DNA of 64,000 bases from Escherichia coli O157:H7 (GTDB lineage: Bacteria > Pseudomonadota > Gammaproteobacteria > Enterobacterales > Enterobacteriaceae), in NCBI RefSeq assembly GCF_013167455.1, contig NZ_CP038328.1. One strand, written 5' to 3'. Below are positions 3,001-6,000 of the stretch, one piece after another (the first letter of the stretch is position 1; every line of letters starts with the position of its first letter). The position numbers are program-made.

Positions 3001-6000
3001 GGGGATTCTCAGGATGAACATAAAGGGTAAAGCGTTACTGGCAGGATGTATCGCGCTGGCATTCAGCAATATGGCTCTGGCAGAAGATATTAAAGTCGCG
3101 GTCGTGGGCGCAATGTCCGGTCCGGTTGCGCAGTACGGTGACCAGGAGTTTACCGGCGCAGAGCAGGCGGTTGCGGATATCAACGCTAAAGGCGGCATTA
3201 AAGGCAACAAACTGCAAATCGTAAAATATGACGATGCCTGTGACCCGAAACAGGCGGTTGCGGTGGCGAACAAAGTCGTTAACGACGGCATTAAATACGT
3301 GATTGGTCACCTCTGTTCTTCATCAACGCAGCCTGCGTCTGACATCTACGAAGACGAAGGCATTTTAATGATCACCCCAGCGGCAACCGCGCCGGAGCTG
3401 ACCGCCCGTGGCTATCAGCTGATCCTGCGCACCACCGGCCTGGACTCCGACCAGGGGCCGACGGCGGCGAAATATATTCTTGAGAAAGTGAAACCGCAGC
3501 GTATTGCTATCGTTCACGACAAACAGCAATACGGCGAAGGTCTGGCACGAGCGGTGCAGGACGGCCTGAAGAAAGGCAATGCTAACGTGGTGTTCTTTGA
3601 TGGTATCACCGCCGGGGAAAAAGATTTCTCAACGCTGGTGGCGCGTCTGAAAAAAGAGAATATCGACTTCGTTTACTACGGCGGTTATCACCCGGAAATG
3701 GGGCAAATCCTGCGTCAGGCACGCGCGGCAGGGTTGAAAACTCAGTTTATGGGGCCGGAAGGCGTGGCTAACGTCTCGCTGTCTAACATTGCGGGCGAAT
3801 CAGCGGAAGGGCTGCTGGTGACCAAGCCGAAGAACTACGATCAGGTTCCGGCGAACAAACCCATTGTTGATGCGATCAAAGCGAAAAAACAGGACCCAAG
3901 CGGCGCATTCGTTTGGACCACCTACGCCGCGCTGCAATCTTTGCAGGCGGGCCTGAATCAGTCTGACGATCCGGCTGAAATCGCCAAATACCTGAAAGCG
4001 AACTCCGTGGATACCGTAATGGGACCGCTGACCTGGGATGAGAAAGGCGATCTGAAAGGCTTTGAGTTCGGTGTGTTTGACTGGCACGCCAACGGCACGG
4101 CAACCGATGCGAAGTAACAGATAGATAAATGAAAATGCCCGATGCGCTGAACTGCCATCGGGTTTTTTTGTGTTTGTCGAAATGGTTGTAGAAAGATTAA
4201 ACAATCCAGGATATGCTTAATGTACGGTGACATACCGTACATATTATACGGAGCAGGAGAGTTCACATGTCTGCTGTTAAAAAGCAGCGTATCGATCTGC
4301 GTTTAACTGACGATGACAAAAGTATGATTGAGGAAGCGGCAGCGATATCTAATCAGTCCGTCAGCCAATTTATGTTGAACAGCGCTTCGCAGCGGGCTGC
4401 GGAAGTGATTGAACAGCATCGGCGGGTGATCCTCAATGAGGAATCCTGGACGCGGGTGATGGATGCGCTGAGTAATCCACCGTCACCAGGTGAAAAGCTA
4501 AAACGTGCGGCAAAACGTCTTCAGGGAATGTAATAATTTATGGATGATCTGACGATAGAGATTCTGACCGATGATGCAGATTATGATCTACAGCGATTCG
4601 ACTGCGGCGAGGAAGCGTTAAATCTCTTTCTGACGACACATCTCGTTCGTCAACATCGCAACAAAATTCTGCGAGCGTATATCCTTTGTCGCAACACTCC
4701 AGAACGTCAGGTGCTGGGATATTACACATTATGCGGCAGTTGTTTTGAACGAGCCGCATTGCCCTCGAAATCGAAACAGAAAAAAATTCCCTACAAAAAT
4801 ATTCCCAGCGTTACTCTTGGGCGTCTGGCAATTGATCGTTCATTACAGGGGCAGGGATGGGGAGCAACACTGGTTGCTCATGCCATGAAAGTCGTCTGGT
4901 CAGCCTCTTTAGCGGTAGGTATTCACGGTCTTTTTGTCGAGGCGCTGAATGAAAAAGCCCATACGTTTTATAAATCGCTGGGCTTTATCCCTTTAGTCGG
5001 GGAAAACGAAAATGCGTTATTTTTCCCAACCAAATCCATTGAACTGCTTTTTACACAGAGCGATTAACGCTTCTCCCAGCCGCCCTGCTGTGCCGTAAAT
5101 CCCAGTGCCTGCATAAACGCCGTCATCACACCGCGATCTTCCACGCCTGCATCCGCCATCCACCAGCATGAAACGCCAGGATTGTTACGCAAAACCTCTT
5201 CCAGCAGATATTGCCCCACACCGCGACGTCGAGTGACTTCCCGCACGCGCAGGGAATCCAGTGCCCCCTCGGTGCCGCTTAAGGTTACCCGCACGGCAGC
5301 AAGCAGGCGCTCGTTAAAACGCGCGGCGTAGATGCGGTGGTTATCGTCAACCTGTAAAGAGGAAGGGGAATACTCCGGCCAGATCTTTTGCAGGTCAATC
5401 CGGTCCTGGTCGCTAAATTTTTCTAATCGAATGATGGTCAGCTTCATGGGTAACCCGTGTAAATCACAAAAGTGGAACCAGTGTAGCGAAATAATTTAAT
5501 CGGAGGCTTTCTCTTTTTTATTTCTTTTGGCAGGTGATTAATTTCTTAACAGCAATAATTACAAAGTTAAAACATTAGAGAATGAAAAATACCCAGCATA
5601 ATCCCCTGAATGGTAGTGAATTATTCCGCCCTTTGTGCCGTTATTTTATGCTGACAAAGGCACTTTTTTCTGTTTATCTATCAATAAATTCAGAATATTA
5701 TCTGTTCTTAATCGACTGAAAAATAGGGACTTTAATCGCTATTATCACAAAATACTGCGCTAAACCCTTAATCAGACAGGCAAAAACAGTGCAGTATAAA
5801 AAAAGAACAGTCTGATTTGTTAACACATAAAAACAAAGCAACACAACATCACGAATGGGGATTTTTGACTATGAAACGGAATGCGAAAACTATCATCGCA
5901 GGGATGATTGCACTGGCAATTTCACACACCGCTTTAGCCGACGATATTAAAGTTGCCGTTGTCGGCGCGATGTCCGGCCCGATTGCCCAGTGGGGCGATA

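Follow-up and report, generated by a model that had tools for sequence, protein, structure and literature searches.

The ataR-ataT operon of Escherichia coli O157:H7 has been the subject of genetic, biochemical and structural studies since 2017, and its genes are named by genome pipelines. The original study of that year reportedly demonstrated acetylation of charged initiator tRNA in vitro. The toxin AtaT belongs to the GNAT enzymes and is active in homodimeric form, and the antitoxin AtaR is a ribbon-helix-helix dimer whose disordered C-terminal tail wraps around AtaT, holds it in the monomeric form and blocks its activity (PMC8138530, PMC6698736, PMC10135005). Together the two proteins form an AtaT-AtaR4-AtaT hexamer that represses the operon and whose binding is loosened by surplus toxin, an arrangement termed conditional cooperativity (PMC8138530, PMC6698736, PMC10135005). 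The operon carries the locus tags ECs4308-ECs4307 in strain Sakai (PMC7470980) and Z4833-Z4832 in strain EDL933 (PMC7957018).

This study concerns a gene pair in a 64-kb window of E. coli O157:H7 DNA, where "the window" denotes the whole stretch of DNA that was analysed. An earlier note on this DNA had described the pair as a GNAT/DUF1778 toxin-antitoxin module like AtaR-AtaT, inserted at an accessory hotspot between livJ and panZ and encoding a toxin that acts on charged initiator tRNA. A literature search on livJ-linked GNAT toxin-antitoxin systems found no report. The identification itself is correct and the system is a known one; the descriptions of its target and of its genomic site are revised below.

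Identity of the gene pair

On sequence, the pair is AtaR-AtaT itself, a stronger statement than the "AtaRT-like" assignment made previously. In a search against all PDB sequences, the product of the second open reading frame was identical at 175 of 175 residues to chain 6GTS_A (E 2.8e-117) and near-identical to the other AtaT structures (6AJM, 6AJN, 6GTP, 6GTQ, 6GTR and 7CHD), while the product of the first was identical at 88 of 88 residues to the AtaR chain common to 6AJM (6AJM_C), 6GTO and 6GTS (E 6.9e-52). At residue 117, the Tomita-lab constructs 6AJM and 7CHD have N where the window has K, and G108D is a further difference of 7CHD; the window has the 6GTS sequence. The similarity to GNAT tRNA-acetylating toxins, whose absence had been named beforehand as grounds for abandoning the reading, is therefore maximal.

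Domain searches led to the same assignment. The first open reading frame matched the Pfam family TacA1 (PF08681, formerly DUF1778) over residues 8-86 with an E-value of 7.9e-26, as is found in DUF1778/TacA1 ribbon-helix-helix antitoxins, and contains R8, D10 and R12 within MSAVKKQRIDLRL; in KacA, R8, D10 and R12 are the residues that contact DNA (PMC6698736). The second matched the GNAT families PF13508 (E 3.5e-7) and PF00583 (E 1.8e-6) as well as PF13673, and it retains both the acetyl-CoA motif QGQGWG (residues 103-108) and the catalytic Tyr144, in keeping with a GNAT-fold acetyltransferase. Because of these Pfam matches and the complete identity to solved structures, the two open reading frames are not chance features of the sequence.

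The annotation of nearly identical chromosomes provides further agreement. The window is 100% identical across 25 kb to many O157:H7 chromosomes and 99.955% identical across its 64 kb to that of strain PV15-279, and on the 100%-identical O157:H7 DNA the genes are named ataR (WP_001277108.1) and ataT (WP_000342448.1) by RefSeq, between livJ and panM (= panZ). The earlier statement that the EHEC AtaR-AtaT module sits at this position is thereby borne out. For neither protein did an NCBIfam model reach its cut-off, the weak MobA/RelB and RimI-like matches falling far below it, and therefore the RefSeq names do not derive from those HMMs. Among the PADLOC defence models, no family was matched by AtaR or AtaT at E <= 0.01. 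Combined, these results make it almost certain that the pair is the chromosomal ataR-ataT type II toxin-antitoxin operon of E. coli O157:H7.

Nothing contradicts the AtaR-AtaT identification.

Layout of the locus

The features of the locus are collected in Table 1. The coordinates, sizes and spacing given in the earlier note for the two open reading frames between the livJ terminator and the 3' end of panZ proved exact. Both genes lie on the (+) strand, ataR ahead of ataT, with a 6-nt gap (4534-4539) according to both the list of open reading frames and the raw sequence, so that the bicistronic order and tight spacing of such modules are both found here.

Table 1. Coordinates of the ataR-ataT operon and of the features around it in the window
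Feature	Position	Strand	Description
ataR	4267-4533	+	88 aa; ATG 4267 to TAA 4533; RHH/DUF1778 (TacA1) antitoxin and autorepressor
ataT	4540-5067	+	175 aa; ATG 4540 to TAA 5067; GNAT aminoacyl-tRNA N-acetyltransferase toxin
Shine-Dalgarno AGGAG	4255-4259	+	7 nt 5' of the ataR ATG, by direct sequence reading
livJ intrinsic terminator hairpin, then T-run	~4129-4171	+	RNA fold and inverted repeat search
Inverted repeat, perfect 9-nt arms, ATGTACGGT-N5-ACCGTACAT	4220-4242	.	25-47 nt upstream of the ataR start; candidate AtaR operator
panZ (panM)	5064-5447	-	convergent core-gene neighbour; context, outside the module
Variable segment, 943 bp	4118-5060	.	stands in place of the 184-bp REP/BIME-containing livJ-panZ spacer of K-12

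Downstream of the livJ stop codon, whose last nucleotide is 4117, lies a strong terminator hairpin, with a folding energy of -20.8 kcal/mol (z = -5.16) that was equalled by none of 200 shuffled sequences. A terminator consensus scan of positions 4000-5600 gave no match despite this hairpin, which the scan passed over because of its loop-size rule. A simple consensus scan of the same positions (4000-5600) found no sigma-70 promoter. At the other end of the operon, the stop codons of ataT and panZ share 4 nt (TTAA, 5064-5067), and the same overlap is annotated in ST131 and other alleles.

The 95 bp that separate the livJ terminator from the ataR start contain the 9-nt inverted repeat listed in Table 1. 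Within the 64-kb window there is one occurrence of its core, GTACGG-N7-CCGTAC, where 0.05 would be expected. Unlike the spacer and the ends of the arms, which vary, this core is kept in the alleles of ST131, E. albertii and E. whittamii. Published structures place the AtaR4-AtaT2 hexamer on a palindromic stretch of the ataRT operator, as in the case of KacAT (PMC6698736). The repeat is taken here as the candidate operator for the AtaR-AtaT hexamer.

Toxin mechanism

Growth arrest through aminoacyl-tRNA acetylation, and neutralisation by direct binding of the antitoxin, have been published for proteins identical in sequence to those of the window (PMC7595197, PMC9177977, PMC8138530). What the toxin acetylates in the cell is less simple than the earlier note had it. 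According to the original 2017 model, AtaT is toxic specifically through the acetylation of initiator Met-tRNAfMet, leading to a block of initiation, and Met-tRNAfMet is indeed a genuine substrate in vitro, and a structure with Ac-Met-tRNAfMet has been solved by crystallography (PMC7595197). In vivo, however, the substrates comprise Gly, Trp, Tyr, Phe and Met aminoacyl-tRNAs (PMC7595197). Yashiro et al. 2020 reported that Gly- and Trp-tRNAs surpass Met-tRNAfMet as substrates, with Tyr- and Phe-tRNAs equally good, that the Km of AtaT for Met-tRNAfMet is ~100-fold worse than that of the formylase, and that the level of fMet-tRNAfMet in vivo is unchanged upon AtaT induction (PMC7595197).

The broad specificity in vivo was confirmed by Bikmetov et al. 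2022, with a bias towards Gly (PMC9177977). Additionally, peptidyl-tRNA hydrolase (Pth) rescues cells from AtaT even though it is unable to deacylate N-blocked initiator tRNA, and from this rescue and the unchanged fMet-adenosine the authors concluded that AtaT acts at elongation (PMC9177977). The tRNA-target data all come from plasmid over-expression of AtaT. Against this evidence, toxicity by way of the initiator tRNA specifically is very improbable. Of the claim that the toxin targets charged initiator tRNA, the part that stands is that this tRNA is a substrate in vitro, whereas elongator aminoacyl-tRNAs are the main substrates in vivo; the commonly repeated "initiator-tRNA" mechanism for AtaT is corrected accordingly.

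For the operon in the window, the published work suggests the following mode of action. AtaT would acetylate aminoacyl-tRNAs, mainly those of the elongator class (Gly, Trp, Tyr, Phe, Met), and the ribosome would be unable to use the acetylated tRNAs, leading to a stall in elongation and a stop in growth that peptidyl-tRNA hydrolase could undo. Binding of the AtaR tail would keep AtaT monomeric and inactive, and the AtaT-AtaR4-AtaT complex, seated on the palindromic operator, would repress the operon until an excess of toxin freed it.

Two states of the livJ-panZ interval

E. coli K-12 MG1655 has a livJ-panZ gap of 184-187 bp and lacks ataRT, in agreement with the earlier note. When the window was compared with K-12 by blastn, homology ended right after the livJ stop (4117) and restarted within the final codon of panZ, at 5061. 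Because homology restarts within this codon, the C-terminal residue of PanZ is R127 in the ataRT-bearing strains and C127 in K-12. The K-12 spacer showed no similarity to ataRT or to the 943-bp segment and contains REP/BIME-like palindromic repeats instead.

The states of the interval were counted over 5,426 complete E. coli genomes. The ataRT pair was found in 1,624 of them, in single copy and always on the chromosome, and the contiguous arrangement livJ-ataRT-panZ in 1,620 (30%); the K-12-type spacer occupies the interval in 3,749 (69%). A third state, seen in 11 genomes, consists of an orphan 94-aa antitoxin (66% identical to AtaR) together with the last 198 nt of ataT. The two main states account for 5,369 genomes (99%), and ~46 genomes fall outside all three assigned states. 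The pair is therefore not universal in E. coli, in line with the earlier expectation. It is also no marker of EHEC, since 30% of complete E. coli genomes carry it, those of ST131 among them, as do other Escherichia species.

The interval is essentially two-state and is not a multi-cargo integration hotspot or genomic island. The earlier description of it as an accessory hotspot fails on the observation that 99% of the genomes are in one of two states. A related view would regard the pair as a recently acquired, EHEC-specific islet, horizontally transferred into a recombination or integration hotspot. Such a view could draw on the absence of ataRT from K-12, on the frequent mobility of toxin-antitoxin modules and on the related GNAT toxins, with ~69% identity, that are common on enterobacterial plasmids. 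However, a plasmid search found no AtaT copy above 80% identity, the best match being a KacT-like GNAT at 68.8%, and the RefSeq annotation places no integrase, IS element or tRNA gene at the livJ-panZ site. A repeat search likewise found no flanking direct repeats or insertion signatures, the only repeats being short chance matches and the candidate operator palindrome. Together with the distribution over E. coli given above, the identical site in two further species and the divergence of ataRT in step with its flanks, both described below, this makes a recent EHEC-specific acquisition exceedingly improbable, the lowest in standing of the alternatives weighed here.

Age and selection

The ST131 (O25b:H4) allele, from a lineage that we take to be without the LEE, is intact and differs from the window by two amino-acid changes in AtaR and four in AtaT. 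At the nucleotide level, ST131 and the window differ by 1.9% in ataR and 3.8% in ataT, compared with 3.4-4.5% in livJ, panZ and the upstream DNA. In a scan for AtaT of one genome per prokaryotic species by exact peptide words, which reaches close relatives only, the protein was found in three species: E. albertii, E. whittamii and the E. coli representative. Each of them has the pair at the livJ-panZ site, colinear with the window over 5-6.5 kb, and the identity to the window is 96.6-98.9% in ataRT and 92.4-94.5% in the flanking livJ/panZ. The livJ terminator is kept in the ST131, E. albertii and E. whittamii alleles and also in the remnant allele.

The dN/dS ratios (Nei-Gojobori) were 0.035-0.084 for ataT and 0.07-0.19 for ataR, against 0.05-0.18 for the neighbouring core gene panZ, and the values, in particular those for ataT, point to strong purifying selection on the module. 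Because the same site is occupied in E. albertii and E. whittamii, divergence tracks the flanks and selection is purifying, the residence of the module appears to be a long one. We infer that ataRT has probably resided between livJ and panZ for a long time in the genus Escherichia, passed on vertically and maintained by selection. The comparisons also indicate that the presence/absence polymorphism between ataRT and the REP spacer predates the diversification of E. coli. The earlier wording that the pair was "inserted" between livJ and panZ implies a direction of change that is unsupported, given the site shared with E. albertii and E. whittamii and the co-divergence with the flanks.

A different account of why EHEC strains carry the module holds that the main role of AtaT there is to acetylate the type III secretion translocon protein EspB at K206, stabilising EspB and enhancing virulence, rather than to arrest growth. 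A delta-ataT strain was attenuated in adhesion and colonisation, and AtaT-dependent acetylation of EspB, a non-toxic role, was described in the same work, which is a single report based on co-expression in BL21 (PMC7957018). However, lineages without LEE/EspB such as ST131 also have the module, intact and under purifying selection, and EspB therefore does not explain its maintenance. As the main role in EHEC, the acetylation of EspB is unlikely, though less so than an initiator-specific toxicity.

The polymorphism may be older still. In one further reading, the ataRT/REP-spacer polymorphism, itself reasonably supported by the sequence comparisons, would be older than the divergence of E. coli, E. 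whittamii and E. albertii from one another and would have been kept by selection and not by mobility. PanZ is an acetyl-CoA-sensing regulator of pantothenate/CoA synthesis, and AtaT consumes acetyl-CoA. It is pure speculation that convergent transcription, e.g., by antisense or transcriptional interference, might couple AtaT functionally to PanZ. The compound proposal, in which an ancient trans-species polymorphism is kept by selection and the conserved 4-nt overlap of the stop codons additionally couples AtaT to PanZ, is highly improbable as a whole, a shade more so than the initiator-specific model. Overall, the variation at livJ-panZ appears as a simple polymorphism of two states, old and under purifying selection, which bears on the debate over the persistence of chromosomal toxin-antitoxin modules.

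Comparison with related systems

The described AtaR-AtaT of E. coli O157:H7, represented by 6GTS and the other PDB entries named above, agrees with the pair in the window in its proteins, flanks and annotation. The next relatives are KacA-KacT of Klebsiella pneumoniae (PDB 5ZGN and 5XUN), which in the PDB search matched with E-values of 8.5e-74 for KacT and 2e-38 for KacA, and whose published identities are ~67% for KacT vs AtaT and ~73% for KacA vs AtaR (PMC6698736). KacA-KacT belongs to the same GNAT/RHH clade and forms the same T-A2-A2-T hexamer on a palindromic operator, with conditional cooperativity (PMC6698736), but comes from another species and another locus.

A second system of this kind, AtaR2-AtaT2 (ECs4261-ECs4262; PDB 7F37), is also present in the window, at 53197-53957 on the - strand. 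Like AtaR-AtaT, it pairs a GNAT toxin with a DUF1778 antitoxin and acts by aminoacyl-tRNA acetylation, but AtaT2 is strictly specific for Gly-tRNAGly, unlike AtaT (PMC7470980). The two toxins are only 33% identical, over 140 aa. Their loci are likewise distinct, with ataR2-ataT2 consisting of overlapping open reading frames at malT-rtcA and ataR-ataT of spaced ones at livJ-panZ.

More distant are TacA-TacT of Salmonella and ItaR-ItaT of E. coli HS, which have the same enzyme chemistry and an antitoxin of the same family. The other GNAT chains in the PDB matched AtaT with E-values of 1e-11 to 1e-20, and the weakest match was 7BYY at 1.2e-4; we take 5FVJ to be TacT and 7BYY to be ItaT. The tRNA preferences of both TacT and ItaT differ from those of AtaT (PMC9177977).

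The ataT-panZ junction and a rare third state of livJ-panZ

At the downstream edge of the ataR-ataT pair, the convergent ataT and panZ genes share the motif TTAA (window 5064-5067), in which their stop codons overlap, and no terminator was found between the two genes. The homology break with K-12 sits within the final panZ codon, and therefore the C-terminal residue of PanZ, a GNAT-fold protein that binds acetyl-CoA, is Arg127 in strains carrying ataRT vs. Cys127 in K-12.

Besides the ataRT and K-12-type spacer states, a rare third state of livJ-panZ was seen in 11 of the 5,426 complete genomes surveyed. 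This state encodes a 94-aa TacA-family antitoxin with 66% identity to AtaR, after which ataT is reduced to its final 198 nt (94% identical); the livJ terminator is conserved and is preceded by an additional insert with repeats. The third state is a toxin remnant with an orphan antitoxin, and this antitoxin might serve as an anti-addiction element.

Other segments differing from K-12, and differences from PV15-279

Several other intervals of the window differ from K-12. Between livF and ugpB, a 1,041-bp segment (10708-11748) carries a tetratricopeptide-repeat gene vs. 215 bp in K-12. The ggt-yhhY interval (19216-21034) encodes a DUF4225 protein, and the K-12 interval spans 3.4 kb with yhhZ, yrhA::IS1, yrhD, and yrhB; ggt-yhhY looks closer to a true variable hotspot than livJ-panZ. 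K-12 lacks a 3.5-kb gntU-yhgN segment (26942-30452) whose products are a DprA-like protein and a helicase of the RecQ family, the latter annotated in RefSeq as frameshifted with an internal stop. The 2.8-kb glgP-glpD segment (42333-45175), of which K-12 keeps only a yzgL remnant, encodes a hypothetical protein and two PstS-family phosphate-binding proteins.

Relative to O157:H7 strain PV15-279, megablast over 64 kb returned 2 gap openings and 17 mismatches. In a per-position comparison, the first indel is a single-base difference in the T-tract of the RyhB terminator (T10 in PV15-279 vs. T9 in the window). The rtcR gene of PV15-279 is annotated as frameshifted.

Features of the window and of the third livJ-panZ state
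Feature	Coordinates	Strand	Remark
Third-state example	L002 2707-3195 (NZ_CM142689.1)		Likewise in loci L012, L013; equivalent to window 4118-5067
Tetratricopeptide-repeat protein ORF, 248 aa	10826-11572	+	livF-ugpB segment
DUF4225 protein ORF	about 19913-20824	-	ggt-yhhY interval
RyhB sRNA	21674-21749		Rfam, 83.1 bits
gntU-yhgN ORF pieces	27081-29053	+
gntU-yhgN ORF	29112-30407	+
glgP-glpD ORFs	42098-43615, 43641-44633, 44633-45235	+
sRNA ES036/CssrF	45323-45365		Rfam; directly past glgP-glpD segment
Second GNAT/DUF1778 pair	53197-53957	-	Between malT and rtcA
ORF of second pair, 161 aa	53197-53682	-
ORF of second pair, 94 aa	53673-53957	-

A second GNAT/DUF1778 pair

The window holds a second toxin-antitoxin pair of this type, within an 889-bp malT-rtcA segment (53125-54013) vs. 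49 bp in K-12. Its toxin shares 33% identity with AtaT and matches PDB 7F37_B (E 9.5e-107). The pair corresponds to the published AtaR2-AtaT2 (ECs4261-ECs4262), the toxin of which is specific for Gly-tRNAGly (PMC7470980).
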